32,000 nt of DNA from Corynebacterium glutamicum ATCC 13032 (GCF_000011325.1 NC_003450.3:570001-602000); one strand, 5' to 3'. Shown: positions 11,270-27,891, numbered from the stretch's first letter. The notes: generated from the sequence alone by a model not told the origin. A program made the numbers and translations.

Positions 11270-11299
11270 TTAGACTGCAAAACTCGCCTTTTGGTTCCC
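11270..11299 (-). promoter_or_regulatory. ECF-sigma-type promoter copy P1 (GGGAAC-N18-GTCTAA), directed at the GNAT gene
   Basis: The minus strand reads GGGAACcaaaaggcgagttttgcaGTCTAAca. Same architecture as P2-P4. 48 nt before ATG 11221. Confidence 0.6.
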
Positions 11300-11405
11300 T
11301 CAAAAGCAAATCTGAGAATCTTCCCACTTTCACTAGTCTTATCCCGGACCAGCGCACTACAGTTCCTGGATTAGGGGATGTAAAGATCTAAAGCTGGGGG
11401 AATAC

Positions 11406-12665
11406 ATGGCTGAAGGCATGTTGATGCCCACGACATCGGCGCAGGTGTCGGGGCATAAATTTCTGGTGCGGCGCATCGAACATGGGTTGGTGATGGGCGA
11501 TGTGCGCATGATTCATGATCCACTTGGTAGGCGCCGGCGGGCGTTGGTGTTTGGGGTGGTGGCGTGCGTGATGTTGGCGGTGGGATCATTGGCGTTGGCT
11601 ATTTTTCGACCCGCGAAGGATCCGGCCGATGCGCCGTTGATCCGCTCTGAATCCGGCGCGCTCTTTGTGCAGCTGGATGGGTCGGTGCATCCGGTGGCTA
11701 ATGTGGCCTCGGCTCGGTTGATTGTGGGGGAGCCGGTGGATCCGGTGAACGCCAGCGATGCGATCATCGCGGGCATGCCGCGCGGAGTGCCGGTGGGGGT
11801 TCCTGATGCGCCGGGGCTTTTCAGCAGCACCGAAGAACCCGAGCAAGATTGGTTTGTGTGCCAGGATGTCGGCACTGGGGATCTACACATTACGGTTCCT
11901 AGGGGCGGACTAGGGCCCACCCTGATTGCGGAAGGAAATGGGTGGCTGGGGGCGTCGAAAAGCGAAACCGGCGAGGTCACCTGGAACCTGATTACCGCGG
12001 ACGGGCGCCGCGAACTGCCGGCGTGGGGCAGCGAACATGGGCGCATTATGCGCCGCCACCTGGGGATTTCCGAGGACACCCCGCGCGTATACCTGACCAC
12101 TGAGCTGCTCAACGCGATCCCCGAGCACGACGCGGTCCGCTTCCCAGCCCCGCTGCCCGAGCTTGTCGACGCCTCCACCCGCAACTGGTTACGGCTCGAC
12201 GGGGCGCTCGCCGAAATCACGCCGCTACAGCGCGGGTTGCTTATCGACGCCGGTTCCGGTGTTTTCCCCGACCCCACCGCGCTTCTTGGTGTGCATGAAG
12301 AAACAGCCAACACCTTGACGCTGCCCGAGCAAACAGTTTCTTGGCAAGATCTGGACGGTGGTTTTGCCTGCGCGGATGGTGAAGGCCAGATCGGTTTCCT
12401 GGAAACTCTGGAATCGGGGGTGGCGCTATCTGGTGATTCCAGGGCGAAAAGTTTCAGCACAAACGCTGGTGGGGCAGTGGGCGTGGACAGTGGCTTTGGC
12501 TACTATGTGGTCTCTGATTTTGGGCTGATGCACCCTGTTTCTACTGGTGAATCGATGGTTGCCCTAGGAATCACTGACGTGCAGGTCGTGCCGTGGAGCG
12601 TGCTGCGATTGTTGCCGCAGGGAAGTGAATTAGCAAAAGAGACAGCGCTCGCGCCCACCTATTAA
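11406..12665 (+). CDS. eccB: Type VII secretion system component EccB (ESX-4-like)
   Basis: 419 aa. The N-terminus TSAQVSGHKFLVRRIEHGLVMGDVRMIHDPL followed by one TM helix is the EccB signature. Large extracytoplasmic domain. SD GGGGGAA. Confidence 0.85.
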   Translation: MAEGMLMPTTSAQVSGHKFLVRRIEHGLVMGDVRMIHDPLGRRRRALVFGVVACVMLAVGSLALAIFRPAKDPADAPLIRSESGALFVQLDGSVHPVANVASARLIVGEPVDPVNASDAIIAGMPRGVPVGVPDAPGLFSSTEEPEQDWFVCQDVGTGDLHITVPRGGLGPTLIAEGNGWLGASKSETGEVTWNLITADGRRELPAWGSEHGRIMRRHLGISEDTPRVYLTTELLNAIPEHDAVRFPAPLPELVDASTRNWLRLDGALAEITPLQRGLLIDAGSGVFPDPTALLGVHEETANTLTLPEQTVSWQDLDGGFACADGEGQIGFLETLESGVALSGDSRAKSFSTNAGGAVGVDSGFGYYVVSDFGLMHPVSTGESMVALGITDVQVVPWSVLRLLPQGSELAKETALAPTY

Positions 12666-12683
12666 GGAGTATGGTGGCCTTAC

Positions 12684-14231
12684 ATGAGCGGATTAGTTGA
12701 CCCGGATAGTACTTTTTTAAAGACCATCGGAAAACTGAGCAACAGCTTGTCCATTGGTCGTGGAGTAGATCAAAAAGAGGTAATCCCCAAAGGCTGGAAC
12801 GCCCATTGGGAGGCAATTACAAAGCTTAAGAGAAGCTTTGACGCGATTCCTGCTGGGGAGCGGGTGCGTTTAGCTAAGAAAACCTCCAACCTGTTCCGTG
12901 GACGCTCCGATGCAGGTCACGGCCTAGATGTGGCAGCGCTTGGGGGAGTGATTGCCATTGATCCGGTCAATGCCACCGCCGATGTACAGGGCATGTGCAC
13001 GTATGAAGACCTGGTAGATGCCACTTTAAGTTATGGTCTGATGCCGTTGGTTGTGCCTCAACTGAAAACCATCACGCTTGGTGGCGCAGTGACCGGAATG
13101 GGCGTGGAATCCACATCCTTCCGCAACGGTTTGCCACACGAATCAGTGCTGGAGATGGATATTTTTACCGGCACTGGTGAGATCGTGACTTGCTCGCCCA
13201 CAGAAAATGTCGACCTTTACAGAGGTTTTCCCAACTCTTATGGTTCGCTGGGATACGCGGTGCGGCTAAAAATTGAGCTGGAACCAGTGCAAGATTACGT
13301 CCAGCTGCGCCACGTGCGCTTCAACGATTTAGAGTCTTTGACCAAAGCGATTGAGGAAGTCGCGTCTTCTCTGGAGTTTGATAACCAACCCGTCGATTAC
13401 CTTGACGGCGTGGTGTTTTCACCCACGGAAGCCTACTTAGTTCTTGGCACGCAAACCTCACAACCTGGCCCCACCAGCGATTACACCAGGGATTTAAGCT
13501 ACTACCGCTCCCTGCAACACCCAGAGGGCATCACCTATGACCGCCTGACAATCCGCGATTACATCTGGCGCTGGGACACCGACTGGTTCTGGTGTTCACG
13601 CGCATTCGGCACCCAAAACCCCGTGGTGCGCAAACTCTGGCCCAGGGATCTGCTGCGCTCGAGTTTCTATTGGAAGATCATCGGCTGGGATCGAAAATAC
13701 TCCATCGCTGATCGCCTGGAAGAGCGCAAAGGCCGCCCGGCTAGGGAACGGGTGGTCCAAGACGTGGAAGTTACGATTGATAAACTGCCAGAATTTTTGA
13801 AATGGTTCTTTGAAAGCAGCGACATCGAGCCGCTGTGGCTGTGCCCGATCAAGCTTCGGGAGGTACCAGGTAGTTCGGTTGGTGCTGGAGAAATTTTGAG
13901 CTCCGCTGAAGCAATCGACTCCGGTGCTGCTGAACACCCTTGGCCGCTGTATCCCTTGAAGAAGGACGTGCTGTGGGTCAACATCGGATTCTGGTCCTCA
14001 GTGCCGGTTGATCTGATGGGCTCCGATGCACCAGAGGGAGCATTTAACAGAGAAATCGAACGCGTCATGGCAGAGCTAGGCGGACATAAATCGCTGTACT
14101 CCGAAGCGTTCTACACCAGGGAAGACTTTGAAAAACTTTATGGCGGAACCATCCCGGCGCTGCTAAAAAAGCAGTGGGATCCCCACAGCCGATTCCCCGG
14201 TTTGTATGAAAAGACAGTAAAAGGCGCCTAG
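12684..14231 (+). CDS. FAD-binding oxidoreductase (PCMH/FAD_binding_4 type; BfaA / DHCR24-like)
   Basis: 515 aa. FAD-binding segment is TITLGGAVTGMGVESTSFRNGLPHESVLEMDIFTGTGEIVTC. Starts 18 nt after the eccB stop. Confidence 0.8.
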   Translation: MSGLVDPDSTFLKTIGKLSNSLSIGRGVDQKEVIPKGWNAHWEAITKLKRSFDAIPAGERVRLAKKTSNLFRGRSDAGHGLDVAALGGVIAIDPVNATADVQGMCTYEDLVDATLSYGLMPLVVPQLKTITLGGAVTGMGVESTSFRNGLPHESVLEMDIFTGTGEIVTCSPTENVDLYRGFPNSYGSLGYAVRLKIELEPVQDYVQLRHVRFNDLESLTKAIEEVASSLEFDNQPVDYLDGVVFSPTEAYLVLGTQTSQPGPTSDYTRDLSYYRSLQHPEGITYDRLTIRDYIWRWDTDWFWCSRAFGTQNPVVRKLWPRDLLRSSFYWKIIGWDRKYSIADRLEERKGRPARERVVQDVEVTIDKLPEFLKWFFESSDIEPLWLCPIKLREVPGSSVGAGEILSSAEAIDSGAAEHPWPLYPLKKDVLWVNIGFWSSVPVDLMGSDAPEGAFNREIERVMAELGGHKSLYSEAFYTREDFEKLYGGTIPALLKKQWDPHSRFPGLYEKTVKGA

Positions 14232-14315
14232 GATCGCTCACTGTAGGTAGAGGCTTGTGGTCACTACTTGTGGCCACATTTTAAAAAAATGCACAAGAAG
14301 AGAAAGCAAAGCATT

Positions 14316-15623
14316 ATGAGTAACGCCGTAGCGCAGGACCTCATGACCATCGCCGACATCGTCGAGGCCACGACCACTGCACCCATCCCATTCCACATCA
14401 CTGCCTTCGATGGAAGCTTCACTGGCCCTGAAGATGCTCCCTACCAGCTGTTTGTTGCCAACACGGATGCAGTATCCTACATCGCAACAGCGCCAGGAGA
14501 TTTGGGTTTGGCACGTGCCTACCTCATGGGAGACCTCATCGTGGAAGGTGAGCATCCCGGCCATCCTTATGGGATCTTTGATGCGTTGAAGGAGTTCTAC
14601 CGCTGCTTCAAACGCCCAGATGCATCCACCACCTTGCAGATCATGTGGACTCTGCGGAAAATGAATGCCTTAAAATTCCAGGAAATTCCACCAATGGAAC
14701 AAGCCCCTGCATGGCGTAAAGCACTGATCAACGGGCTAGCATCCAGGCACTCGAAATCCCGCGACAAGAAAGCCATTAGCTACCACTACGACGTGGGCAA
14801 TGAGTTCTACTCCCTGTTTTTAGATGATTCCATGACCTATACCTGCGCGTATTATCCAACGCCAGAATCAAGTTTGGAAGAAGCCCAAGAAAACAAATAC
14901 CGCCTCATCTTTGAAAAACTGCGTCTGAAAGAAGGCGATCGCCTCCTAGACGTGGGATGCGGTTGGGGAGGCATGGTCCGCTACGCCGCCAAACACGGTG
15001 TGAAAGCCATCGGAGTTACGCTGTCTGAACAGCAATATGAGTGGGGTCAAGCAGAGATCAAACGCCAAGGTTTGGAAGACCTCGCGGAAATTCGCTTCAT
15101 GGATTACCGCGATGTTCCAGAAACTGGATTCGATGCGATCTCAGCAATCGGCATCATTGAACACATCGGTGTGAACAACTATCCCGACTACTTTGAATTG
15201 CTCAGCAGCAAACTCAAAACAGGCGGACTGATGCTCAACCACAGCATCACCTACCCAGACAACCGCCCCCGCCACGCAGGTGCATTTATTGATCGCTACA
15301 TTTTCCCCGACGGTGAACTCACTGGCTCTGGCACCCTGATCAAGCACATGCAGGACAACGGTTTCGAAGTGCTGCACGAAGAAAACCTCCGCTTTGATTA
15401 CCAACGCACCCTGCACGCGTGGTGCGAAAACCTCAAAGAAAATTGGGAGGAAGCAGTTGAACTCGCCGGTGAACCCACTGCACGACTCTTTGGCCTGTAC
15501 ATGGCAGGTTCGGAATGGGGATTTGCCCACAACATCGTCCAGCTGCACCAAGTACTGGGTGTGAAACTCGATGAGCAGGGAAGTCGCGGAGAAGTTCCTG
15601 AAAGAATGTGGTGGACTATCTAA
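14316..15623 (+). CDS. SAM-dependent methyltransferase of the cyclopropane-fatty-acyl-phospholipid synthase family (BfaB/UfaA1-like)
   Basis: SAM motif I LLDVGCGWGGM and the CMAS-family core (YHYDVGNEFYSLFLD, YQRTLHAWCENL). The start is uncertain: TTG 14268, ATG 14289 or ATG 14316. I chose 14316 because of the upstream AGAAGAGAAAG. Confidence 0.8.
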   Translation: MSNAVAQDLMTIADIVEATTTAPIPFHITAFDGSFTGPEDAPYQLFVANTDAVSYIATAPGDLGLARAYLMGDLIVEGEHPGHPYGIFDALKEFYRCFKRPDASTTLQIMWTLRKMNALKFQEIPPMEQAPAWRKALINGLASRHSKSRDKKAISYHYDVGNEFYSLFLDDSMTYTCAYYPTPESSLEEAQENKYRLIFEKLRLKEGDRLLDVGCGWGGMVRYAAKHGVKAIGVTLSEQQYEWGQAEIKRQGLEDLAEIRFMDYRDVPETGFDAISAIGIIEHIGVNNYPDYFELLSSKLKTGGLMLNHSITYPDNRPRHAGAFIDRYIFPDGELTGSGTLIKHMQDNGFEVLHEENLRFDYQRTLHAWCENLKENWEEAVELAGEPTARLFGLYMAGSEWGFAHNIVQLHQVLGVKLDEQGSRGEVPERMWWTI

Positions 15624-15822: not shown

Positions 15823-16251
15823 ATGGGCACGATGCGAGAAATGGTCAGTGACCGCATTGACCGACTACAAGAAGCACACGCGCGATCAAAGCAGAAGAAG
15901 TTCGGCTTCTTAGTTCGGCCAGGCACCCTGATCCTTGGATGGTTGGTCACGATCATCGGTCTGATCACCATTCCACTTCCCGGCCAAGGCTGGCTGACCA
16001 CCTTCATTGGTGTGGGCATTTTGTCTCTGGAGCTTAAATGGGCGAAGAACCTCCTGGCCTGGGGAGTGCATCAGTATGATCGCTTCTTCACCTGGTACGG
16101 CAAGAAATCATTCCGCTTCCGCATGGCGATGTTGGCACTGATGATTCTGCTGATTTGGGTGGTGTTCATCGTGACATTTTGGTTGATGTGGCACGCCGGA
16201 ACTATCCCGTGGGCAGATGAGTTCTTCACCTGGCTTGGGTTGAGCCGCTAG
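15823..16251 (+). CDS. Small membrane protein of the PGPGW type (two hydrophobic hairpins)
   Basis: 142 aa with TIPLPGQGWLTTFIGVGILSLEL, similar to the PGPGW motif family, and four hydrophobic helices. Confidence 0.6.
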   Translation: MGTMREMVSDRIDRLQEAHARSKQKKFGFLVRPGTLILGWLVTIIGLITIPLPGQGWLTTFIGVGILSLELKWAKNLLAWGVHQYDRFFTWYGKKSFRFRMAMLALMILLIWVVFIVTFWLMWHAGTIPWADEFFTWLGLSR

Positions 16252-16254
16252 CAA

Positions 16255-16392: not shown

Positions 16393-16395
16393 AGA

Positions 16396-17640
16396 TTAAG
16401 TGATAACACTTGAGCTAGCTTTTTGAAAGGCCGAGTGATGATGAATTCGGCGTAGTCCCATCAGCACAGCTAACACTGCGAGCAACCCAACAATGATTGC
16501 GGTAACTAGGATGCCCCGCTCCCGTGGAGAATCATCCGGCGGCGTGGGAACACTTAGTGCGATCTCATGAACCAGGGGAGTGGTGGGATAGATTTCTTGA
16601 GTAAGTGCCAGGTAGGGATCAATAGCGCCTCTTGCAGGGTCGATGCTGTTGAAGATTCGTGCACGAATTTCATAGGGTGTGGCAAAGGGAAAATGCTGGC
16701 GAAGCAGTGCAGCTGTGGCGCTGACAACTGGAGCGGCAAAACTGGTGCCCTCGAAGGGGCTTTCGCCAGCGGTGGTGATCATGTGGCTGGCGAAGCCGTC
16801 GCCACGCGGTGATAGACCAGCCTGAATGTGGCTTGGTGCAGAGAGGATTTGTTGGTTGCCAGGCATGGAATATTCTGCAAGCGTGTGAGAATCAAAACGT
16901 GCCGACACAGAGAGCACAGTGTCTGAATGTGCAGGATAAACGGTAGATCCAACTGGACAATCCTGCCCGAGGTTTCCTGCTGCTGCCACCACTATCACCC
17001 CTTGAAGTTCTGCTCTGTTAAGAGCATCCGTCAGAGGCTGGAACGATGCGGCCTCGTCGGGTGATTGGGGCAAACAGGACACCACGGAAATATTGATCAC
17101 GTGGGCACCGGAATCGAGAGCTCGGTGGATGGATTCCGCCAGGGTGCTCAGCGTTCCGACGTTGGAATCTTCACGAGTACGCACATATGAGCTGGTTTGT
17201 TTAATGGAGATGATTCCGGAATCTGGGGCGACACCGATATAAGGATCGGAGCTGCCGTCATATGGCCAGCCGGTGCCGGGGTTTCCTTGGGAGGCGATGA
17301 TTCCGGCGACGATGGTGCCGTGGCCGTCGCAATCGATAAGTTCACCTGGCACATCGGGGCTTTGGTGGGCGCCCACGAAATCACCGCCGGGAATTAAGTG
17401 GGGCAGACGTGGATGCAGGGATACTCCGGTGTCGATGACTGCCACCATCACACCGGCGCCAGTTGCTAGTTGGTGAGCTTGGGATAATGACTGCGAAAGG
17501 TGTTCATCTAAAACTGCGGAGGAAGGATCGGCGATCGCTACCTCGGGGCAAGCGAGAGCTTCTACTTCCTGTGCCCTCGTCGCTGGAGTGGAAGCCAACA
17601 TAAACAGAGCGGCCAAGCTAACCGCGATGAGTCTGCGCAT
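16396..17640 (-). CDS. mycP: Mycosin, T7SS subtilisin-like serine protease MycP
   Basis: Asp/His/Ser triad contexts VAVIDTGV, DGHGTIVAGIIA and GTSFAAPVVSATAALL. Signal peptide MRRLIAVSLAALFMLASTPATRA and a C-terminal TM anchor. Start taken at ATG 17640, 1 nt after the eccD stop. The track ORF extends to 17757. Confidence 0.9.
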   Translation of the reverse strand: MRRLIAVSLAALFMLASTPATRAQEVEALACPEVAIADPSSAVLDEHLSQSLSQAHQLATGAGVMVAVIDTGVSLHPRLPHLIPGGDFVGAHQSPDVPGELIDCDGHGTIVAGIIASQGNPGTGWPYDGSSDPYIGVAPDSGIISIKQTSSYVRTREDSNVGTLSTLAESIHRALDSGAHVINISVVSCLPQSPDEAASFQPLTDALNRAELQGVIVVAAAGNLGQDCPVGSTVYPAHSDTVLSVSARFDSHTLAEYSMPGNQQILSAPSHIQAGLSPRGDGFASHMITTAGESPFEGTSFAAPVVSATAALLRQHFPFATPYEIRARIFNSIDPARGAIDPYLALTQEIYPTTPLVHEIALSVPTPPDDSPRERGILVTAIIVGLLAVLAVLMGLRRIHHHSAFQKASSSVIT

Positions 17641-17641
17641 C

Positions 17642-19024
17642 TTATCCACCGAATCCAATATCAAGACCGCGCAGCATTCCAAATACATCCAGCAAATGCA
17701 GTGCGAGTGGCAGACTAGCTGCAAGACACAGTGATTCCAACCTTTCAAGCCACACAATGGTGGTGGGTTCCAGCGTGGGGACTGTACTGATCCACAATGC
17801 CACGCTGACCAGCACAGCGATGATAACCACAGAACCGATCAGTGCAATTAGTGAACCTGATCGGCTTGCGGATAACGCCATGGAAATGAAACCAAGGGCA
17901 GATAACCCCATCAATGTCCACGTGGGAATTGGTGCTTGATGACGATTAGCGTGAAGCAGCGAAGCCACCGCGATGCATAAACTAAAAACGGTGGTTGTCC
18001 AGGTGCCCGGGGTAACCGACAACAACGCCAAAGGCCCGCTCAAAACGCCAAGGCCAAGGATCTGGGCGTCGAAAAGCGTCTTTGTTGTTTTTATTCTTTT
18101 CTCGGGATCAGTCATGGTGAGGTCGCTGACGGAGAGATCTTCGCCGGCGGTGGGAAGCGATGGGACGCGCAGGCCTGCTAGCGATGCTGCGATTTTCGGG
18201 GCGAAGCACATGGTGATGGTGGAAGCGGTGACCGTGATCGCTGCTGGACCGCTGAAATCTTCGGTAGCTTTGAGCTTCCACAGAGTGGTGGTTGCTGCAA
18301 GGACTAAGAGACCGAGCCCCAATGTGGACAGTGTTGCCACCAGAAGAATTGCTGGACGATACACCACATGAACCAGCAGCGAACTGGCAAGAATAGTGCA
18401 CGCGCCAGCGAAAATCGTCCAGGTAAGCGCGCCGGGAGAAGTCCCAGAAGTGCCTGCAACCAGCACTGATACCGCTCCGCCTGCGCCCAAGATCAGGGTA
18501 ATCGGCAGGACGTTTCGAAGGATCGGGGTGTGCGCGGGTGGGAGCCACAGAAGCAGTAGAGCGCAGATTGCGACGAAGATTCCCATGCGGCCGGGCACAA
18601 TAATTCCGGAGGCAGCAGGACTTGTCATTAACACGGCAGCCCCGATGAGCCCCGCGAAAGTCATCAATTCCACGAGGTGCCCGGCGCGGTTCGTGGAAGA
18701 AAACTCCACCAACGCTTCGGCGACATCACGCAACACGGGGGCTTCCAAGTCCCTTTCGGGTGAAAGGACCACCACGCTGCCTTGTTCCACTTGTGTTTCT
18801 GCAAGCGGAATCCCGCAATCAATGGGACTTCCCGCAGCAGTGTGAGCCACCCACGGCCTGGAAATCCGGGGTGCATCGGTGAGTTCTAAAATTTCATCCA
18901 AAATGTCCGCCAGACTCGAACCTGCAGGTAGCGCCACATCAGCCACAGCAGCGGGCGCATCGCCAACGGTGAGATCTATGCGGATGCTCACGCGCAGCGC
19001 ATTATCGATTGCCAAAATAACCAA
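17642..19024 (-). CDS. eccD: Type VII secretion system membrane component EccD
   Basis: 460 aa. N-terminal soluble ubiquitin-like segment (RVSIRIDLTVGD...ADVALPAGSSLADIL) followed by about 11 TM helices. The start is ambiguous: TTG 19024, TTG 19015 or GTG 18991. Confidence 0.85.
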   Translation of the reverse strand: MVILAIDNALRVSIRIDLTVGDAPAAVADVALPAGSSLADILDEILELTDAPRISRPWVAHTAAGSPIDCGIPLAETQVEQGSVVVLSPERDLEAPVLRDVAEALVEFSSTNRAGHLVELMTFAGLIGAAVLMTSPAASGIIVPGRMGIFVAICALLLLWLPPAHTPILRNVLPITLILGAGGAVSVLVAGTSGTSPGALTWTIFAGACTILASSLLVHVVYRPAILLVATLSTLGLGLLVLAATTTLWKLKATEDFSGPAAITVTASTITMCFAPKIAASLAGLRVPSLPTAGEDLSVSDLTMTDPEKRIKTTKTLFDAQILGLGVLSGPLALLSVTPGTWTTTVFSLCIAVASLLHANRHQAPIPTWTLMGLSALGFISMALSASRSGSLIALIGSVVIIAVLVSVALWISTVPTLEPTTIVWLERLESLCLAASLPLALHLLDVFGMLRGLDIGFGG

Positions 19025-19121: not shown

Positions 19122-19151
19122 GGGAACCTTTTGGCCGTTTTTCCAGTCAAA
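19122..19151 (+). promoter_or_regulatory. ECF-sigma-type promoter copy P2 (GGGAAC-N18-GTCAAA) upstream of eccC
   Basis: GGGAACcttttggccgtttttccaGTCAAAca, 87 nt before ATG 19239. Confidence 0.6.
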
Positions 19152-19238
19152 CACTTATTGACAGCCTTTTCTTTTTTAGATGACTTTCTAAAAAGCACGA
19201 CACTAGGCAAGACAAGAAGAACTCGGGGGAGTTAGAAA

Positions 19239-22200
19239 ATGACAACATCAGTGGAGCGACAAGAACAATCACCAACTGGTTACATCGTGGAACCGGTGAC
19301 GTGGCCAGAACGCGATCCGGCGCCACCGCTGCCAACGGAGCCGCTGATCGCTGAAGCTGTGCCACAAGCGGTACGTCCAGCGCCGAAACCACTGCTCAAA
19401 GTATTGATGCCTGTGATCATGGTGGCCATGGTGGCCATGGTGCTGGCGATGGTGGCGCTGATGATCCTTACCAGTGGGCAGTTAAATCCTATGGTCTTGA
19501 TTTTTCCAATGATGATGGGTATGAGCGTCCTGATGATGTTCGCCCCACCTGAAGGTGACGATACTGATGAGGTTCGGCGCACCTATTTACGTCACCTGGG
19601 TGCATTGCGGGCGAAAGCGACAGATCACGCGGCGATGCAGCGCAGGCATGAATGGCACAGGCATCCTGATCCAGCAACCTTGTGGTCCACGTTGGGGACT
19701 CGGCGGATGTGGGAGCGCACCCAAGATGATCAAGATTGTTTGGAAATCCGTTTTGGTTTGGGCGTGACCAGGCTTGATCCGGCTATTAACGTGAGTGATT
19801 CGGGTGCGCCGGAGGATCTTGATCCGGTATGTGCGGTGTCGTTGCGTCACACCATTCGGGATGTGGGGTCGGTGCAGAGCATGCCGGTGTCGGTTCAGTT
19901 GCAGGCGTTTCGATTCATTGGGCTCAACGGTGCGGGCGCACATGATCTGGCGCGGGCGCTGGTTGTGCAGTTGTTGTACCACCACGGACCGGAGGTGGTG
20001 GGTATCAAAGCGATCGGGGAGTCGGGTTGGGAGTGGCTGAAATGGGTACCGCACACCCGCGATCCGGAGAAGGCAGCCTTTCGGATTTTGCTGGTGGATT
20101 CCGTGTTGACCAACGGCACCGAAAGCTTCATTGATGACCCCCAATGGACCACGATCATCAACGTTGGCGCGCAGACCAGCACCGCATTGGGCCAGCTGGC
20201 AGAGGATGAAGGGCTGCTGTTGCACGTCGATAAGCGTCTGCATGTGGCTACCGCGCACGGCGCGGAGGAGCTGGGCACGCCGGATGCGGTTAGCGCTGAG
20301 CTTGCGGAGGTTTTTGGCCGCCGTTTGACTGCTTTTCGACGCACAACCACAGCACACGCGGCGAGCTCTGGTGAATTGCTGTCCCTTTTGGGGATTGATG
20401 ACGTGGAGCATTTAACTCCAGAAACCTTATGGATGAACAAGCGCACGCAGCCTAAAACTCGTTTGGCGGTGCCCTTGGGTTTGAACGCGTCCGGTCGGCC
20501 GATGGTACTGGATCTGAAGGAATCGGCGCACGGCGGAATGGGACCACATGGGCTGTGCATCGGCGCTACTGGCAGCGGAAAATCCGAACTTTTAAGAACA
20601 CTTGTTCTAGGTTTGACGATCACCCATTCGCCTGAGGAATTGAATCTGGTGTTGGTGGATTTTAAAGGTGGCGCCACCTTTTTGGGCTTCGAGCAGCTGC
20701 CTCACACGTCCGCGGTGATCACCAACTTGGAGGAAGAGTCCGTGCTGGTGGAGCGCATGCATGATGCGATTTCGGGTGAGATGAACCGCAGGCAAGAAGC
20801 CCTTCGGCAGGCAGGTGGCTGCGCCAATGTGGATGAATACAACCAGCGTGATGGTGTGAAACCGATGCCCGCGCTGCTCATTGTGATCGATGAATTCTCG
20901 GAGTTGCTTGGCCAACATCCCGATTTCGCAGACCTATTCGTCGCCGTCGGACGCTTGGGCCGTTCCTTACACATCCATTTGTTGCTCGCTAGCCAACGTC
21001 TGGAAGAGGGGCGGTTGCGCGGATTGGATTCCCACTTGTCCTACCGGATCGGCTTAAAAACCTTTTCCGCATCCGAATCGCGCCAGGTATTAGGCATCAC
21101 TGACGCATATCAATTACCCAGCCAACCCGGCGCAGGTTTCCTCAAATCCGACGTCGACACCGTCACCCGCTTCCAAGCAAGTTATGTATCCGGCCCCATC
21201 ATGCGTCGCCATCACCTCGCACCAACGCAGTCCCGGGTGCGCCTTTTTACCAGCTGGGAGGAACCCAAAGAGGAGGTGATTGTCGAGCAAAGCACCGAGA
21301 CGCTTATCGACGCCGTGGTTGCGCGCGCCATCAGCGCCGCGAAGTTGCGGGGGTTAAGCGCTCATCGCATCTGGTTGCCACCGTTGCCGGCAGAAGTTTC
21401 GATTGGTGCTTTGGCTGATGATGTCGGTGAGCTAAGCGCCGTGATCGGGATGATCGATAGACCCTATCAACAGCGACAAGATCCATTGCTGATTGATTTT
21501 TCTCTCAACGGTGGAAGCGGACACTGGGCTATTTGTGGTGGGCCCCAAACCGGAAAGTCCACGGCATTGCGCAGCATCGTGATCTCCATGGCAGCAACGC
21601 ATAGCACAGAAAACATCCGCTTTTACGTGCTGGATTTATCTGGAACCTCCCTGGAAAATCTCTCCCGGCTGCCTCATGTTGCAGGCGTGGCAGGACGCAA
21701 AGATCCAGAGAAAGTCCGCCGAGTTGTCGATGAAGTACGAGGCCTGATCAACCACCCTGAACAACGCCACACCTTCCTTATTGTGGACGGCTGGCACACC
21801 ATCACCCAAGAATTCGACGAGCTTTTCGACGCCTTCGTAGACATCGCCGCCAACGGCCTTGCCTCGCGGGTGCATTTAGTTTTAAGCACTCAACGCTGGA
21901 GTTCCATCCGCCCCGCGGTCCGCGATCTGGTGACTGGCAGAATCGAATTGAAACTCGGCGAAGCCATGGATTCGGTGATTGATCGTAAAGCTCAGCTTCG
22001 GATCCCGTCGAAACCTGGGCGTGGCCTCAACCTGGATAAAGAACACATCCTTATTGCTCATGCGTCTGGCCAAGACATCGCCCAGGTATGCGTCATGGCC
22101 GATGGGCAAGGATGGCAGCAGGTCCCACAATTAAGCGTGCTGCCTGCGCATATCCTGCTTCACGAGCTTGAGCTTTCTGCGACACCTGGCATCCCGATTG

Positions 22201-22865
22201 CACGGGGAGGTGCTGAACTATCCACGCTGACGTGGGATCCAGAATCCAGCCGCCACCTTCTAGCTTTTGGTTCTCAAGGTTGTGGCAAATCCTCGCTGAT
22301 CCGCACGATTGTCACGGGTCTGACAATTGTGGGGCGGGAGAAAGCACGCTTGGTATTTTTCGACCTTCGACGCACCCACCTAGGCCTGGTCCCCGAAGAC
22401 ATGTTGGCTGCTTATTGTGCTACTTCCACAGCAGTCCACAACACCATCAAAGACATGGTGGCTACGCTATCCGCCAGACTTCCAGGACCTGATATCACCG
22501 CCCAAGAACTCCGCGATCGTTCCTGGTGGCAGGGGCCCGACATTTATTTAGTTATCGATGATTATGATTTGCTCCCCGCCGGCACCCTGCACCCGCTGCG
22601 CGAGATCATCCCGCATGCAAGAGACGTAGGCCTGCACATCGTGCTCACCCGCAAAGCCGGTGGCGCCTCGCGTGCGCTCTACGATCCGGTCATGTCCGAG
22701 ATCAAGGACCAATCACCGCACGTCGTGCTTTTCGACGCCGACCGCGACGAAGGCGCTATCCTAGGCATCAAACCCACAGCACAACCACCAGGACGTGCCA
22801 CGATGTCCATCCGTGGTGAAAACATCGGTGTTGCACAGATGGCACGCATAGGTGATGACTCATGA
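19239..22865 (+). CDS. eccC: Type VII secretion system FtsK/SpoIIIE-family ATPase EccC
   Basis: 1208 aa. Two N-terminal TM helices. Three P-loops: GATGSGKSE, GGPQTGKST and GSQGCGKSS. Walker B is canonical only in domain 1 (LLIVIDEFSEL); domains 2 and 3 have LIVDGW and LVIDDYD. Confidence 0.93.
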   Translation: MTTSVERQEQSPTGYIVEPVTWPERDPAPPLPTEPLIAEAVPQAVRPAPKPLLKVLMPVIMVAMVAMVLAMVALMILTSGQLNPMVLIFPMMMGMSVLMMFAPPEGDDTDEVRRTYLRHLGALRAKATDHAAMQRRHEWHRHPDPATLWSTLGTRRMWERTQDDQDCLEIRFGLGVTRLDPAINVSDSGAPEDLDPVCAVSLRHTIRDVGSVQSMPVSVQLQAFRFIGLNGAGAHDLARALVVQLLYHHGPEVVGIKAIGESGWEWLKWVPHTRDPEKAAFRILLVDSVLTNGTESFIDDPQWTTIINVGAQTSTALGQLAEDEGLLLHVDKRLHVATAHGAEELGTPDAVSAELAEVFGRRLTAFRRTTTAHAASSGELLSLLGIDDVEHLTPETLWMNKRTQPKTRLAVPLGLNASGRPMVLDLKESAHGGMGPHGLCIGATGSGKSELLRTLVLGLTITHSPEELNLVLVDFKGGATFLGFEQLPHTSAVITNLEEESVLVERMHDAISGEMNRRQEALRQAGGCANVDEYNQRDGVKPMPALLIVIDEFSELLGQHPDFADLFVAVGRLGRSLHIHLLLASQRLEEGRLRGLDSHLSYRIGLKTFSASESRQVLGITDAYQLPSQPGAGFLKSDVDTVTRFQASYVSGPIMRRHHLAPTQSRVRLFTSWEEPKEEVIVEQSTETLIDAVVARAISAAKLRGLSAHRIWLPPLPAEVSIGALADDVGELSAVIGMIDRPYQQRQDPLLIDFSLNGGSGHWAICGGPQTGKSTALRSIVISMAATHSTENIRFYVLDLSGTSLENLSRLPHVAGVAGRKDPEKVRRVVDEVRGLINHPEQRHTFLIVDGWHTITQEFDELFDAFVDIAANGLASRVHLVLSTQRWSSIRPAVRDLVTGRIELKLGEAMDSVIDRKAQLRIPSKPGRGLNLDKEHILIAHASGQDIAQVCVMADGQGWQQVPQLSVLPAHILLHELELSATPGIPIARGGAELSTLTWDPESSRHLLAFGSQGCGKSSLIRTIVTGLTIVGREKARLVFFDLRRTHLGLVPEDMLAAYCATSTAVHNTIKDMVATLSARLPGPDITAQELRDRSWWQGPDIYLVIDDYDLLPAGTLHPLREIIPHARDVGLHIVLTRKAGGASRALYDPVMSEIKDQSPHVVLFDADRDEGAILGIKPTAQPPGRATMSIRGENIGVAQMARIGDDS

Positions 22866-23764
22866 GCACCCAAACAATCACCATCACAGTCCTAGAAACC
22901 GCCACCATCTTTGACGGCCCTGAAACCATCTACCGCTATGACCTGGCTGCCGAAGGCATCCTTGATGGATGGGCTCACTCTGCTGTGCTGGATCAAGTGA
23001 AACAAATAGCAGGTGAAAACTGGCCGACTGTTGAGATCGTGGTGGATGGCACCGACAACGTAGTCAATGCACTCACCTCCATGTTTGCTTCCAAAGGCGT
23101 GACCTGCGGTGGGGTTGGAGTAGAAGCACCTCCCGTTGCGGAGGAACCACCGAAAATTAAACGGCCCACGAGTGGAAAACAAGTCCGCCAGTTCTACGGC
23201 ATCAAGCCACTACACCTGTTGTTGGTCAGCATATTGGTTGGTTCTATTGCTGGTATTTGGGTGATTTCGGGTTTCACTGGGCCAGTGGACTCACGGCCGG
23301 TAGATAAGGTGGCGGAGATTTCAACGCAGGGGGAGACGTCGATAAGCAATCAACCCCAACCCCAGCCCACCGTGCTCGTGACCGAGGACCTGCTTATTGA
23401 GGCGCCATTTGGTTTTGAAATGCGAAGCGACGAACAGTCGCGCTACCTGGAAGGCCCCGACCCGAATCTGCGCATCCACGTGGGCGTCGATCCGCTGCAC
23501 GGCGCGGACGCCGCGCTGGTTGCCGAAGAGCTGCGCCGCCTGATCACCGAGGATCCTTCGCTGGAGGAAATTCCCGCAGGGGAGTGGGGCGAGAAAACCA
23601 CCATCGACTACCGCGAAACACCCGGCGATGGCTCTCATGTGCTGTGGGTGACCTGGTTTGACACCGACCGACAACTCAACGTTGGGTGCCATAGCAAAGC
23701 CGCCGAAACCCTTGTTCACAAGGCACAATGCCGAAATGTGATTGAGCATCTGACGCTGAAATGA
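22862..23764 (+). CDS. T7SS-associated single-pass membrane protein (Rv3446c-like by position)
   Basis: 300 aa. ATGA overlap with eccC. One TM helix (LLLVSILVGSIAGIWVISGF). It occupies the slot held by Rv3446c between eccC4 and esxU in mycobacterial ESX-4 (from memory). Confidence 0.55.
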   Translation: MSTQTITITVLETATIFDGPETIYRYDLAAEGILDGWAHSAVLDQVKQIAGENWPTVEIVVDGTDNVVNALTSMFASKGVTCGGVGVEAPPVAEEPPKIKRPTSGKQVRQFYGIKPLHLLLVSILVGSIAGIWVISGFTGPVDSRPVDKVAEISTQGETSISNQPQPQPTVLVTEDLLIEAPFGFEMRSDEQSRYLEGPDPNLRIHVGVDPLHGADAALVAEELRRLITEDPSLEEIPAGEWGEKTTIDYRETPGDGSHVLWVTWFDTDRQLNVGCHSKAAETLVHKAQCRNVIEHLTLK

Positions 23765-23814
23765 TGCCGGTTTCTATCCGGAATAGGGCCGGAATAAAAA
23801 AGTTTTGAAAAATA

Positions 23815-23844
23815 GGGAACCAAAACGCGACTTTCACAGTCCAA
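23815..23844 (+). promoter_or_regulatory. ECF-sigma-type promoter copy P3 (GGGAAC-N18-GTCCAA) upstream of the WXG100 pair
   Basis: GGGAACcaaaacgcgactttcacaGTCCAAca, 90 nt before ATG 23935. Confidence 0.6.
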
Positions 23845-23934
23845 CATAAATAGGAAAGGCAAAAAGCTTTTCCGGGGGAACACCAGAGAAACTGGTGAAC
23901 TTTAAAATCATTTCGTTCGAGGAGGGGCGAACCA

Positions 23935-24261
23935 ATGTCAAATCTTTTCAGGACAGAATCCGATGTGATGCTCGCGACGGCGAGCCAGGTAGACGACATT
24001 AACGATCAAGTTCAGGGCGAACTGAGCCGACTTCGCGGAGTTGTTGATTCCGTACGCGGCAGCTGGGCCGGCCAAGCACAGGTCAGCTTCGACTCCCTGA
24101 TGAACCGCTGGAACTCATCAGCACGCCAACTGCAGGAAGCACTGGCGTCCATCTCTGACAACATCCGCCACAACGCGCGCAGCTTCGAAAACACTGAAGC
24201 CGACAACTCCCAGGCATTCAACGCTGTCGGTGCTGGCGACGGCGCTGGACTCCCACTGTAA
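23935..24261 (+). CDS. WXG100 family T7SS substrate (EsxB/EsxU-like, longer partner)
   Basis: 108 aa. W44-A45-G46 at the helix-turn-helix position. C-terminal FENTEADNSQAF fits the hydrophobic-xxx-D/E-x7-hydrophobic export motif. SD GAGGAGGGG. Confidence 0.88.
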   Translation: MSNLFRTESDVMLATASQVDDINDQVQGELSRLRGVVDSVRGSWAGQAQVSFDSLMNRWNSSARQLQEALASISDNIRHNARSFENTEADNSQAFNAVGAGDGAGLPL

Positions 24262-24292
24262 AACTCTCAAAGAAGAATAAGGAACCAAGAAC

Positions 24293-24583
24293 ATGGACAT
24301 GATCCGCTATGAATTCGGTGCCATCCAAGGTGCCGCAACCGACATCAACTCCACCTCAGGTCGAATCAACTCTCTACTTGATGGCCTGAAATCTCAACTG
24401 CAGCCGATGGTAGCCAGCTGGGAGGGCGAATCCAGCGAAGCATACAGCGAGGCGCAGCTGAAGTGGGACCGCGCAGCAGCAGAACTCAACACCATCCTTG
24501 CCACCATCTCCAACACCGTTGCCCAAGGCGCTGAACGTATGTCTGATGTGAACCGCCGCGCAGCAGCAAGCTGGGGTGCATAA
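24293..24583 (+). CDS. WXG100 family T7SS substrate (EsxA/EsxT-like, shorter partner)
   Basis: 96 aa with W43-E44-G45. Starts 31 nt after its partner gene. Confidence 0.88.
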   Translation: MDMIRYEFGAIQGAATDINSTSGRINSLLDGLKSQLQPMVASWEGESSEAYSEAQLKWDRAAAELNTILATISNTVAQGAERMSDVNRRAAASWGA

Positions 24584-24722
24584 GGGCTAGTTGTAAAGGC
24601 TGGCTTTGATTGCTAGCGGGGTTGCTGCACTTTTTAAAAAGGCAAAAAATAGCGAAAACACACCCCAGGTTTTTCCCGTAACCCCGCTAGGCTATGCAAT
24701 TTCGGTTTAACCCAGTTTTTCA

Positions 24723-24768
24723 AAGAAGGTCACTAGCTTTTCCGCTGGTCACCTTCTTTTTGGTTTTT
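24723..24768 (+). terminator. Rho-independent terminator of the esx transcript
   Basis: AAGAAGGT (24723-24730) pairs with ACCTTCTT (24751-24758) and is followed by TTTGGTTTTT. Confidence 0.65.
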
Positions 24769-24938
24769 CAACGCAGAGATAGTACACTTTACTCTTTGTG
24801 TGTGGAGTCAAACCTCCCCTTTAAGGGGTGCGCTTGGACAGCAGGACAAATTCGGGTCACCACCGGCCGCCGAATTTAGCTTCCTTCCGAACATATTCCT
24901 GGCTGGCAGTTCTAGACCGACTAATTCAAGGAGTCATT

Positions 24939-25382
24939 GTGTCTACTTACCACCCGAAGAGCGGTGACATCACCCGTAAGTGGTACGTCATCGACGCCAC
25001 TGACGTGGTTCTGGGTCGCCTGGCAACCCACGCCGCTGACCTACTTCGCGGCAAGGGCAAGCCTTTGTACGCACCTAACGTTGACTGCGGCGACCACGTA
25101 ATCGTGATCAACGCTGACAAGGTTGCAGTTACCTCCAACAAGCGCGAGCGCGAAATGCGTTACCGCCACTCCGGTTACCCTGGTGGCCTGAAGTCCATGA
25201 CCCTGGGTCGTTCCCTGGATCTGCACCCAGAGCGCACCATCGAGGATTCCATCGTCGGCATGATGCCACACAACAAGCTCACTGCTGCTTCCGCAAAGAA
25301 GCTGCACGTTTTCTCCGGCTCCGAGCACCCATACGCTGCTCAGAAGCCTGAGGCCTACGAGATCAAGAAGGTGGCCCAGTAA
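24939..25382 (+). CDS. rplM: 50S ribosomal protein L13
   Basis: GTG start preceded by AAGGAG. (M)[28 protein letters not shown]..., 147 aa. The track ORF from 24828 is an extension. Confidence 0.95.
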
Positions 25383-25930
25383 TGTCAGAGCCTATCCAGA
25401 ACGAGAACGTAGAGAGCAACGTCGCAGACGCTGCTGACATCGCTGCAGCAACCGCTGCAACCGAGGAGTTCACCAACACCATCGGCGATGCAATTGCTAC
25501 TGCTTCCGAAGAAGAGACCATCGAGGCTGCACCAGTAGTACTCGACGGCCCAATCCAGACCGTTGGTCGCCGTAAGCGCGCCATCGTTCGCGTCCGCCTT
25601 GTAGCTGGCTCCGGCGAGTTCAAGTGCAACGGTCGCACCCTGGAAGAGTACTTCCCTAACAAGCTGCACCAGCAGCTGATCAAGGCTCCTTTGGTCCTCC
25701 TGGACCGCGAGAACCAGTTCGACATCGTTGCAACCCTGAAGGGTGGTGGCCCAACCGGACAGGCTGGCGCATTCCGCCTCGCAATTGCACGTGCACTGAA
25801 CGCATACAACCCAGCAGAGCGCGGCGAGCTGAAGAAGGCTGGCTTCCTCACTCGTGACGCTCGTGCAGTTGAGCGTAAGAAGGCTGGTCTGCACAAGGCA
25901 CGTCGTGCACCTCAGTACTCCAAGCGTTGA
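25382..25930 (+). CDS. rpsI: 30S ribosomal protein S9 with acidic N-terminal extension
   Basis: 182 aa. The C-terminus ...[16 protein letters not shown] is the S9 signature. TAATG overlap with rplM. Confidence 0.95.
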
Positions 25931-25950
25931 TATTTACTCAACGTTTGCGC

Positions 25951-25990
25951 AAACCCGTTTCGCCGAATTTCTCGGTGGGGCGGGTTTTCC
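25951..25990 (+). terminator. Probable terminator after rpsI
   Basis: AAACCCG...CGGGTTT with inner CGCCGA/TCGGTG stem, followed by a T-rich stretch. Confidence 0.5.
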
Positions 25991-26095
25991 GCATTCTTGG
26001 GGTTTCTTGTGACTTAGGGACTTGGGTTTACACAGCTCAACCGAAGAAAAATTGTTCAATAGAGTTTTGAACAATGCGATCTTGGCCAGGCCGTG

Positions 26096-26101
26096 CATAA
26101 T
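26096..26101 (+). promoter_or_regulatory. Candidate -10 box (CATAAT) giving a leaderless glmM transcript
   Basis: CATAAT ends 7 nt before ATG 26109. No SD in taatcgc. Confidence 0.4.
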
Positions 26102-26108
26102 TAATCGC

Positions 26109-27452
26109 ATGACTCGACTATTTGGAACTGATGGCGTCCGCGGACTAGCCAATGAAGTACTCACCGCACCTTTGGCCTTGAAGCTGGGGGCCGCTGCAGC
26201 TCACGTACTTACCGCAGAGAAACGGGTAGATGGACGTCGCCCGGTTGCGATCGTTGGTAGGGATCCTCGAGTCTCTGGAGAGATGCTCGCGGCAGCACTT
26301 TCAGCAGGCATGGCCAGCCAGGGTGTTGATGTCATTCGTGTTGGTGTCATCCCAACCCCTGCTGTTGCATTCCTCACCGATGATTATGGCGCTGACATGG
26401 GCGTGATGATTTCTGCATCCCACAACCCAATGCCGGACAACGGAATCAAGTTCTTCTCTGCAGGTGGACACAAGCTTCCAGACCATGTGGAAGACGAGAT
26501 TGAGCGTGTTATGGACAGCTTGCCAGCAGAAGGCCCAACAGGGCATGGAGTTGGCCGTGTCATCGAAGAAGCAACCGATGCACAGGACCGTTACCTAGAG
26601 CACCTGAAGGAAGCTGTTCCTACGTCACTTGAAGGCATCAAGATTGTTGTGGATGCAGCCAATGGTGCGGCAAGTGTTGTAGCTCCAACGGCTTATGAGG
26701 CTGCGGGTGCAACTGTAATTGCTATTCATAACAAGCCAGACTCATACAACATCAACATGGACTGCGGTTCCACCCACATTGATCAGGTGCAGGCGGCAGT
26801 CCTGAAGCACGGTGCTGACCTTGGACTCGCGCATGACGGTGATGCTGACCGTTGTTTGGCTGTGGACAAGGATGGCAACCTTGTTGATGGTGACCAAATC
26901 ATGGCGCTGTTAGCCATTGCGATGAAAGAAAACGGCGAGCTGCGCAAGAACACCCTCGTGGGCACTGTCATGAGCAACCTGGGATTGAAGATTGCTATGG
27001 ATGAAGCCGGAATTACACTGCGTACCACCAAGGTAGGAGACCGCTACGTGCTGGAAGACCTCAATGCAGGTGGATTCAGCCTGGGCGGCGAGCAATCTGG
27101 CCACATTGTTCTTCCAGATCATGGCACCACTGGCGATGGAACTTTGACTGGTCTTTCCATCATGGCGCGCATGGCTGAAACCGGAAAGTCCTTGGGCGAG
27201 TTGGCACAAGCTATGACGGTGCTGCCACAGGTTCTGATCAATGTGCCAGTTTCGGATAAGTCCACCATCGTGAGCCACCCAAGCGTTGTGGCTGCGATCG
27301 CGGAAGCAGAAGCTGAGTTGGGCGCCACCGGTCGCGTTCTTCTTCGTGCTTCTGGCACCGAAGAGCTTTTCCGCGTGATGGTTGAGGCTGGAGACAAGGA
27401 ACAAGCTCGTCGTATCGCGGGACGTCTTGCTGCAGTGGTTGCAGAAGTCTAA
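26109..27452 (+). CDS. glmM: Phosphoglucosamine mutase
   Basis: 447 aa from [12 protein letters not shown]. Phosphoserine loop [22 protein letters not shown]-type metal loop (AHDGDADRC). The track ORF from 26022 is an extension. Confidence 0.95.
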
Positions 27453-27539
27453 TTCACTTCAGTCACAGCGCAACGCGATCTGCGGGGTCGAACCTGCCCA
27501 AAGGCTACTTATATCGAATTAGGCAGGTTTGACGCTTGA

Positions 27540-27587
27540 GGGGCCACATATAGCATCACCAAATGTGCATATGTGACCCCTTTTTCT
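27540..27587 (+). terminator. Rho-independent terminator after glmM
   Basis: GGGGCCACATAT (27540-27551) pairs with ATATGTGACCCC (27569-27580), one mismatch, followed by TTTTT. A second hairpin lies just upstream at 27489-27533. Confidence 0.7.
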
Positions 27588-27789
27588 CGCCTGTTAACTT
27601 GCTGGTCAAGGATCCGTCCCCGGGGAAGTGGGAAATGCTAAAATGGAACGAGCATTCGCATAATGGTCATAAATTAGCGCGAATATTCGATCAATTTTGG
27701 CGGAAAGTTCAGAAAATGATCGAGAATTTGCATTGCCAGTCCTGCGCAGGACTGGAACACACATCCTTCGAGAAAAGTTTCCCCAAATT

Positions 27790-27819
27790 GGGAACCTAAA
27801 CGCCTTTGAGACAGTCAAA
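27790..27819 (+). promoter_or_regulatory. ECF-sigma-type promoter copy P4 (GGGAAC-N18-GTCAAA) upstream of the orphan three-gene operon
   Basis: GGGAACctaaacgcctttgagacaGTCAAAcc, 72 nt before GTG 27892. Confidence 0.6.
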
Positions 27820-27891
27820 CCATAGTGGAGGGCAAAAATACTGCCACGAAACTGACATTGGTTGACACATCTTAAAAAGGGGGACTTTTAG

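Follow-up and report, generated by a model that had tools for sequence, protein, structure and literature searches.

Candidate SigM-type promoters of an ESX-4 regulon in Corynebacterium glutamicum ATCC 13032

The ESX-4-type type VII secretion locus of Corynebacterium glutamicum ATCC 13032 carries four copies of a two-box element, designated P1 to P4, which are probably promoters of the SigM type, recognized by an extracytoplasmic function (ECF) sigma factor, and would together define an ESX-4 regulon. The stretch of DNA analysed (the window, 32,000 nt) corresponds to genome positions 570002-602001 (genome position = window position + 570001); this offset follows from a 60-nt upstream sequence in the published table of transcription start sites that is identical to the window. 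C. glutamicum, which is the foremost model organism of its genus and the most important one in industry, has a single ESX-4-type type VII secretion locus (PMC12607788) and seven sigma factors. Sigma M is the only one of the seven that lacks an identified dependent promoter, in spite of a dedicated search (PMC5483222). The four elements would be the first concrete candidate promoters for this sigma factor, and would extend to Corynebacterium a SigM-ESX-4 regulon whose mechanism is itself already known. We regard it as reasonably probable that the sites are the sigma M promoters of C. glutamicum and that the real function of sigma M is that of an ESX-4 switch, with an ancestral wiring and lineage-variable apparatus genes.

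An earlier sequence-only reading of the window had reported matches to GGGAAC-N18-GTCNAA at 11299-11270 (minus strand), 19122-19151, 23815-23844, and 27790-27819 (plus strand), and all four were recovered. In 100 dinucleotide-preserving shuffles of the window, the pattern occurred 0.04 times on average and no shuffle reached four matches (0/100), so that the reported enrichment over chance was confirmed. Inspection of the sequences showed that GGGAACC-N15-CAGTCnAAC is common to all copies and that 14 of the 18 spacer positions are identical between P1 and P3; the distances to the start codons were likewise as reported (Table 1). All four copies are intergenic and in sense orientation, each directed toward a start codon. 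Identity among the copies was 89-100% in the boxes, while upstream (17-47%) and downstream (26-36%) of them it was at the level of random sequence. Since the flanks are no more alike than random sequence, the element was classified as a two-box motif, and a dispersed repeat or mobile element was rejected, every copy being located upstream of genes in sense orientation. Housekeeping-like promoters were absent from all four sites in a sigma-70-type scan.

Because the motif pattern had been defined after the sites were seen, an independent test was run in other species. The comparison set consisted of eccC neighbourhoods from 19 Corynebacterium loci and four outgroups (a Micromonosporaceae metagenome-assembled genome (MAG), Rugosimonospora, Streptomyces, and an unclassified actinomycete MAG), to which C. 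suranareeae (L034), C. faecale (L036), and C. halotolerans (L037) were later added; L031-33 represent another C. glutamicum lineage and L024 Corynebacterium sp. ES2730-CONJ. For mycobacterial loci, uL13 sequences of M. smegmatis and M. tuberculosis from PDB alignments were used as queries and the contigs were fetched, which yielded an M. tuberculosis-like locus (L028), Mycolicibacter terrae (L029), and Mycobacteriaceae loci L025-L027. The uL13 protein encoded in L028 differs from the M. tuberculosis uL13 of the PDB at a single visible residue, and gene sizes in this locus agree with those of strain H37Rv. Gene families were assigned with NCBIfam and Pfam. Cross-species counts were based on one locus per species and on GGAACC-N17-GTC, on the sense strand, within 250 nt; the chance of such a match is approximately 0.001 per 250-nt region.

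In these related genomes, in which the sequence-only reading had suggested a search, all 13 species-level loci had the motif in the 250 nt that precede the first esx gene, and in 12 of 14 it was found in the 250 nt that follow glmM. The two exceptions at glmM were the window, in which the copy lies 338 nt after this gene, and locus L002, in which the spacer is N18. Across nine distinct Corynebacterium loci, 19 occurrences were counted (2.5 expected), all 19 of them at orthologous promoter positions and none elsewhere. In each Corynebacterium species, one copy precedes the esx pair and another immediately follows glmM. Corynebacterium sites are located 60-120 nt from start codons and always point toward the gene, with a spacing of 17 nt or, rarely, 18 nt, and in them a T-run is frequently seen 12-15 nt before the -35 box. 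While spacers diverged between species, GGAACC and GTCnnA remained constant. P3 and P4 are very likely to be functional ECF promoters.

Positional orthologues of P3 and P4 were also found outside Corynebacterium. Those of P3 include sites in L028 (9183) and L029 (9037), and a P4 orthologue, between glmM and a gene of approximately 100 codons, occurred in all Corynebacterium and Mycobacteriaceae loci examined. In L028, GGAACC-N17-GTCCTA precedes esxU and GGAACC-N17-GTCCGA lies between glmM and a 103-codon Rv3440c-like gene; the corresponding -10 sequences in L029 are GTCCAA (upstream of esxU) and GTCTTA (between glmM and the next gene). Even in L025-L027, in which esx4 is not located beside rplM, a GTCTAA site is still present after glmM. 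The -35 sequence GGAACC is thereby present at all four window sites (as GGGAACC) and in mycobacterial loci L025, L028, and L029, and the expression GGAACC-N17-GTC[CTA][AGT]A covers the window as well as the L028 and L029 sites that precede esxU and the gene next to glmM. The M. tuberculosis SigM consensus is GGAAC / GTCCGA.

Experimental data on SigM are available for three mycobacteria. In M. abscessus, RNA-seq of a sigM-rsmA deletion mutant and a SigM-expressing strain defined a regulon of 15 direct target loci with a -35 sequence GGAACCG; esxU/esxT and Mab_3747c-3745c, an operon of three genes, are among these loci, and SigM-induced transcripts begin immediately beside sites equivalent to those described here (PMC13491425). 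Judged from locus numbers, Mab_3747c-3745c is located a few genes from esxT. Multiple esx4 promoters of M. smegmatis are induced by SigM, according to a statement in the same paper (PMC13491425), and a 1800-fold increase of esxU upon sigM overexpression in M. tuberculosis is quoted from Raman (2006) in PMC12635105, in line with the SigM dependence of M. tuberculosis ESX-4 esxU/esxT that the sequence-only reading had stated. Autoregulation of sigM in M. tuberculosis is also mentioned there (PMC12635105). In view of the matching mycobacterial sites and the published SigM dependence of both positions, P3 and P4 are, on the level of sequence comparison, orthologous in position and in sequence to SigM promoters that have experimental support. 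To the same extent, the three elements of the original proposal (ECF-type -35 and -10 boxes, a single regulon, and a SigM-like factor) were upheld.

Resemblance to the mycobacterial SigM regulon thus includes the -35 sequence GGAACC(G), the GTCnnA -10 sequence and 17-nt spacing seen in L028 and L029, and two target positions, one at esxU/esxT and the other at a unit of several genes beside glmM. In the C. glutamicum clade a site is additionally found at eccC, an apparatus gene, which resembles the situation in M. smegmatis; in most corynebacteria, sites are confined to the substrate genes, which resembles that in M. abscessus. In contrast to the mycobacterial regulon, the one proposed here belongs to another genus and is known from sequence instead of experiment, a GNAT gene is attached to it in C. 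glutamicum, and the glmM-adjacent genes have no demonstrable homology to those of the Rv3440c/Rv3439c type. A further difference is that an A-rich tract is reported for M. abscessus, whereas Corynebacterium sites have a T-run approximately 12-15 nt upstream of the -35 box.

In the proposed mechanism, the four elements would be read by RNA polymerase carrying a group 4 (ECF) sigma factor, most likely sigma M (sigM, cg3420), the orthologue of mycobacterial SigM. Domain 4 of the sigma factor would bind the -35 sequence GGAACC and domain 2 the -10 sequence (C)AGTCnA located 17 nt downstream of it. From these comparisons we infer that the sites fire, with sigma M as the factor and with transcription starting approximately 7-11 nt after GTC. 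The resulting regulon would comprise eccC-cg0669 (P2), cg0671-cg0672 (P3), cg0676-cg0678-cg0679 (P4), and the GNAT gene cg0660/cg0659 (P1), the latter recruited in the C. glutamicum clade only, while eccB and eccD-mycP would be transcribed by other means.

Several minor sequence features were observed near the sites. A semi-conserved tGAGA / GGTGAGAA occurs 6-12 nt downstream of GTCnnA at many of them, near the expected start, in Corynebacterium as well as mycobacterial loci (for example, L003 14873-14885 and L028 12500-12508), and could reflect a start-site or initial-transcript preference of the sigma factor. Inverted GTTCCC or GGTTCC sequences are found just 5' of GGAACC at some sites (for example, L002 around 13505-13525 and L012 around 14858-14878). 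An imperfect palindrome, TTCCCCAAATTGGGAA (window 27779-27794), overlaps the -35 box of P4 and may be an operator or due to chance. A related sequence, GGAACC-N18-GTCTGA, at window 10321-10350 (minus strand) lies antisense inside the cg0658 coding region; it is kept in a second C. glutamicum lineage merely as coding sequence and was judged to be a chance occurrence.

Among the apparatus genes of the window, only eccC is preceded by a copy of the motif. A relaxed motif scan revealed no site of 9/10 or better around eccB and no weaker copies at eccB or eccD in the window, which bore out the earlier remark that eccB and eccD-mycP have no good copy. Orthologues of P2 upstream of eccC were present in L002, in C. 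suranareeae (L034 912, minus strand), and in C. faecale (L036 4618), and absent from the other corynebacteria and mycobacterial loci sampled, so that the eccC copy is limited to the C. glutamicum clade. P2 itself is likely to be a functional ECF promoter. Corynebacterium sp. ES2730-CONJ has a perfect copy of the motif 71 nt upstream of eccD (L024 9640-9669, minus strand, GGGAACC...GTCTAA), and its orientation is away from eccC. The apparatus gene connected to this sigma factor seems to vary from lineage to lineage, with a site invariably present at the substrate genes.

A number of observations weigh against the interpretation of the four elements as sigma M promoters; they concern transcript data, the assignment of the sigma factor, P1, and the proteins encoded downstream of P4. 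A lack of start sites downstream of the four elements had been named in the sequence-only reading as one outcome that would refute it, and formally this outcome was obtained: the published map of C. glutamicum transcription start sites (TSS; Pfeifer-Sancar, PMC3890552 Table S1) shows no start downstream of P2, P3, or P4, and contains no entry in genome interval 586393-594795, which includes P2 and P3, nor in 596110-600566, which includes P4. Near P1, the sole mapped start is leaderless and of the sigma A type, at the ATG of cg0660, with -10 sequence TAAAAT. In the portion of this TSS table that was considered, the motif did not coincide with any mapped start, and eccC-cg0669 is listed as a two-gene primary operon without a detected TSS (PMC3890552). 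The absence of starts was not taken as a refutation, because the RNA came from conditions under which activity of a sigma M-dependent promoter has never been observed. Silence of these promoters in transcript maps would be explained if the sigma factor is, as presumed, kept inactive by an anti-sigma factor under laboratory conditions.

Missing start sites would also be expected if the boxes were half-sites for a DNA-binding transcription factor, such as an ESX-4 repressor or activator, rather than a promoter. The inverted GTTCCC or GGTTCC that closely precedes the -35 box in some copies would suit such a role, as would the reported binding of a Fur-type regulator upstream of eccB (PMC12607788). 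However, the two boxes differ from each other and are non-palindromic, their spacing is fixed at 17 nt (rarely 18), and they are always oriented toward a gene, at 60-120 nt from the start codon in Corynebacterium. Moreover, their sequences form the classic ECF pair GGAAC / GTC, and SigM-induced transcripts of M. abscessus begin directly beside equivalent sites (PMC13491425). A transcription factor binding site was therefore considered highly improbable.

With respect to the sigma factor, sigma M has a good probability of being the one involved, and was assigned by orthology only. Other ECF sigma factors of C. glutamicum recognize related sequences. Promoters of sigma E and sigma H share the -35 sequence GGAAC and a spacer of 16-17 nt with the elements studied here and differ from them in their -10 sequence, (C)GTT. 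Sigma E (GGAACx-N16-CGTT) and sigma H (GTT) were both ruled out, since all sites and their orthologues have GTC. The sigma D motif, GTAAC...GAT, does not fit. Promoters of Escherichia coli sigma E (RpoE) also combine a -35 GGAAC with a -10 GTC (structures 2H27 and 4LUP, as quoted in PMC6338062); this sigma factor controls an unrelated envelope-stress regulon, and the likeness reflects a common mode of ECF recognition.

Sigma C, the targets of which are respiratory-chain genes, is the most serious competitor among ECF sigma factors, because its promoters have the same architecture and spacing as GGGAACC-N16-AGTCnA: a -35 core GGGAAC, followed after 16 nt by a 4-nt -10 core that ends in C, and then xA. 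Its consensus is quoted as GGGAACT-N16-CGACTA (Toyoda and Inui, 2016, in PMC5483222), and cydA (GGGAACT-N16-CGACAA) and ctaB (GGGAACT-N16-CGACTA) are examples with mapped starts (PMC3890552 Table S1). Only three conserved positions, one in the -35 box and two in the -10 box, separate sigma C promoters from the motif, and nothing positive is known about sequence recognition by sigma M in C. glutamicum, since none of the promoters tested in vitro was transcribed with the purified protein (PMC5483222); promoters first assigned to sigma M turned out to be sigma H-dependent, and none that depends on sigma M was found (Dostalova et al., 2017, PMC5483222). The sites do not, however, conform to the sigma C consensus (-35 GGGAACT, -10 CGAC(T/A)A), as they read GGGAACC and AGTCnA. 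Position 7 of the -35 box is occupied by C, and not by T, at every site and at every orthologue in more than 13 species, in agreement with the mycobacterial SigM sequence GGAACCG, and the -10 core is likewise AGTC and not CGAC, with GTC in place of GAC at every site and orthologue. Furthermore, the TSS map does contain sigma C starts but none at the four sites, and orthologous promoters are SigM-dependent in three mycobacterial species. Recognition of the elements by an ECF sigma factor other than sigma M, above all sigma C, was accordingly judged improbable.

P1 is the least secure member of the proposed regulon. It is situated between the divergently oriented cg0660 and eccB, approximately 107 nt from the eccB start, a placement that was missing from the earlier reading. 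Its presumed target had been described there as a separate open reading frame (ORF) encoding a GNAT N-terminal domain; the GNAT identification held, but the ORF proved to be the front part of a single 262-codon frame that is interrupted by an in-frame TGA (10916-10918). Intact GNAT homologues of 262 aa are encoded by other C. glutamicum strains (92% identity) and by C. suranareeae (75%). Since the next best matches (64-69% identity) are mostly from other actinomycete genera (for example, Streptomyces, Micromonospora, and Nonomuraea), the data suggest horizontal acquisition of this gene. P1 was limited to C. glutamicum and C. suranareeae; its copies in L031-33 and in C. suranareeae have substitutions in the spacer alone. 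Neither P1 nor the GNAT gene was present in corynebacteria in which the DUF6541 gene directly precedes eccB. In C. suranareeae, the P1 orthologue (L034 9305) is located approximately 670 nt from the GNAT start, from which it is separated by an insert of approximately 620 nt. This insert (L034 around 9350-9990) is rich in repeated GGTCGC/GCGACC-like words, and P1 remains approximately 100 nt from eccB.

This clade-specific distribution, together with a target that is split by a stop codon in strain ATCC 13032, raises the possibility that P3 and P4, and probably P2, are real promoters whereas P1 is non-functional or a relic, maybe a P3-like duplicate, with the GNAT gene outside the regulon. P1 was found exclusively where the horizontally acquired gene exists, the 15-nt spacers of P1 and P3 share 73% identity (33-53% for other pairs), and the GNAT gene has its own leaderless sigma A start, located 48 nt after P1. 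The insert in C. suranareeae, which parts P1 from the gene, would also fit a relic. Conversely, P1 matches both boxes perfectly and has the upstream T-run. Its boxes, moreover, are intact while the spacer has changed, both in the C. glutamicum lineage with the 92%-identical GNAT protein and in C. suranareeae, although this retention is weak evidence because the surrounding intergenic DNA is also fairly conserved in close relatives. A relic was therefore regarded as less likely than not, and on balance P1 may well be a functional ECF promoter.

The unit downstream of P4 had been described as an orphan operon. It is not an orphan: it consists of three genes, cg0676, cg0678, and cg0679, which are conserved throughout Corynebacterium, encoding, in the loci examined, a first protein of approximately 100 aa, a second of 360-625 aa, and a third of approximately 75-105 aa. 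The third protein contains a motif, F.EF...RTAKRM..FEKA, that is strongly conserved across orthologues. Cg0679 is much better conserved than both of its partners, in particular in F.EF...F..RTAKRM..FEKA and in a C-terminal VQSVLRR, and had no family match. In Cg0678, the WxG motif reads QGWVGP and the match to WXG100 is weak (E 0.062); 102 homologous cluster representatives were found for its N-terminal domain. An alignment-based AlphaFold2 (AF2) model of this domain had a predicted local distance difference test (pLDDT) score of 84 and showed a long helical hairpin, while a single-sequence AF2 model (pLDDT 44) was of no use. A Foldseek search of the PDB with the model gave nothing significant, with generic helical bundles as hits and PPE41 at E 0.3-0.4. 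No evident YxxxD/E was found in Cg0676.

At the same position, mycobacteria encode an EspC/DUF7162-like protein of approximately 100 aa and a WxG protein of 440-496 aa with an Ala/Pro-rich tail; a pair consisting of an EspC-like protein and a large WxG protein is also kept after glmM in L025-L027. Homology of the P4 genes to these mycobacterial SigM targets is nevertheless not demonstrable by sequence methods. BLAST searches of the proteins of the unit against their mycobacterial counterparts gave nothing, Pfam provided no match that links Cg0676 or Cg0678 to proteins of the Rv3440c/Rv3439c type, and a profile built from the 102 Cg0678 homologues found nothing significant among mycobacterial proteins. 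Alignment of the small proteins with hhalign was collinear and included a shared AGRxxxxxG loop, but was weak (E 0.0015, probability 16%). Based on position, co-regulation, and architecture, the products of cg0676, cg0678, and cg0679 are probably ESX-4 substrates or accessory proteins, and on the same grounds they are referred to as candidate ESX-4 substrates.

The glmM-cg0676 intergenic region (27453-27891) measures 439 nt, as compared to approximately 40-110 nt in other species, and contains one sigma-70-like match (27529-27556), at which no TSS is reported. In C. halotolerans (L037 1-5000), genes for a serine recombinase and a Prim-Pol protein stand upstream of eccC where eccD and mycP would be expected, and the eccC product has a reduced length (1123 aa). 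This ESX-4 locus seems to have been disrupted by a mobile element, and the P3 and P4 sites have nonetheless been kept in it.

If the proposed assignment is correct, sigma M turns on ESX-4 secretion, that is, the substrates and eccC, in place of its originally assigned targets, the disulfide-stress genes. Regulation of ESX-4 substrates by SigM would then be older than the split between Corynebacterium and Mycobacterium and ancestral to Mycobacteriales, and not a peculiarity of mycobacteria. The core of the regulon would consist of the esx pair and a fast-evolving, uncharacterised unit next to glmM, with eccC wired to it in the C. glutamicum clade, eccD in ES2730-CONJ, and no apparatus gene in the other corynebacterial loci examined. 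It would also flag cg0676-cg0678-cg0679 as candidate substrates in a non-pathogen with a single type VII system. No paper that links sigM with a type VII system in Corynebacterium was found in the literature searched, and searches with locus tags cg0671, cg0672, cg0676, cg0678, NCgl0554, and NCgl0555 returned no papers. A 2025 paper on the C. glutamicum system proposes control by Fur and does not mention SigM (PMC12607788); the candidate promoters put this recent claim of Fur as regulator of the system into context. Induction of the C. glutamicum system by iron limitation and by oxidative stress has been reported, and in M. smegmatis cell-cell contact is a natural trigger. The four sites are exact templates for existing two-plasmid and in vitro assays, which makes the question of sigma M recognition directly testable.

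The genes of the locus are listed in Table 1. EccB, EccC, EccD, MycP, an Rv3446c-like protein, and a WXG100 pair, all above the NCBIfam cut-off, are encoded beside rplM-rpsI-glmM, and gene order is as in the M. tuberculosis-like locus L028 and in M. tuberculosis Rv3450c-Rv3441c. The second WXG100 protein is 100% identical to cgp_0672, and cg0671 corresponds to ExsI in PMC12607788. A profile search with the EsxT-like protein yielded at least 120 matches in Corynebacterium.

Table 1. Motif copies and genes in the window; positions are counted from its first nucleotide (T7SS, type VII secretion system; TM, transmembrane).
Feature	Position	Strand	Description
P1	11269..11299	-	GGGAACC 11299-11293, 15-nt spacer, CAGTCTAAC 11277-11269; 48 nt before cg0660 ATG
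P2	19122..19152	+	GGGAACC 19122-19128, 15-nt spacer, CAGTCAAAC 19144-19152; 87 nt before eccC
P3	23815..23845	+	GGGAACC 23815-23821, 15-nt spacer, CAGTCCAAC 23837-23845; 90 nt before first WXG100 gene
P4	27790..27820	+	GGGAACC 27790-27796, 15-nt spacer, CAGTCAAAC 27812-27820; 72 nt before cg0676 GTG
cg0658	8033-10432	+	DUF6541
cg0659/cg0660	10433-11221	-	GNAT; putative P1 target
cg0661 (eccB)	11406-12665	+	TIGR03919; ESX-4 core gene, without motif copy
cg0662	12684-14231	+	FAD oxidase
Methyltransferase gene	14268-15623	+	Cyclopropane-fatty-acid-synthase-like methyltransferase
cg0664	15823-16251	+	PGPGW protein
cg0665 (mycP) and cg0666 (eccD)	16396-19024	-	TIGR03921 and TIGR03920; core genes, without motif copy here
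cg0668 (eccC)	19239-22865	+	TIGR03924/TIGR03925; downstream of P2
cg0669	22862-23764	+	Rv3446c-like, T7SS-associated, TIGR03931; transcription unit with eccC, downstream of P2
cg0671/cg0672 (WXG100 pair)	23935-24583	+	TIGR03930; EsxU position / EsxT position; Cgl0579, Cgl0580
cg0673-cg0675 (rplM, rpsI, glmM)	24828-27452	+	As longest ORFs
cg0676, cg0678, cg0679	27892-29935	+	Three-gene unit downstream of P4
cg0676	27892-28197	+	101 aa
cg0678	28194-29705	+	503 aa; N-terminal helical domain of approximately 200 aa with WxG, low-complexity linker, TM segment, Pro-rich tail
cg0679	29699-29935	+	78 aa
cg0680	30019-30876	-	Esterase

An Rfam scan of the window gave no matches. A 224-codon ORF at 30881-31555 (minus strand) is probably spurious: in L001, another assembly of the same DNA, the alanine racemase gene alr is called on the plus strand instead, and in that annotation alr runs off the end of the window.

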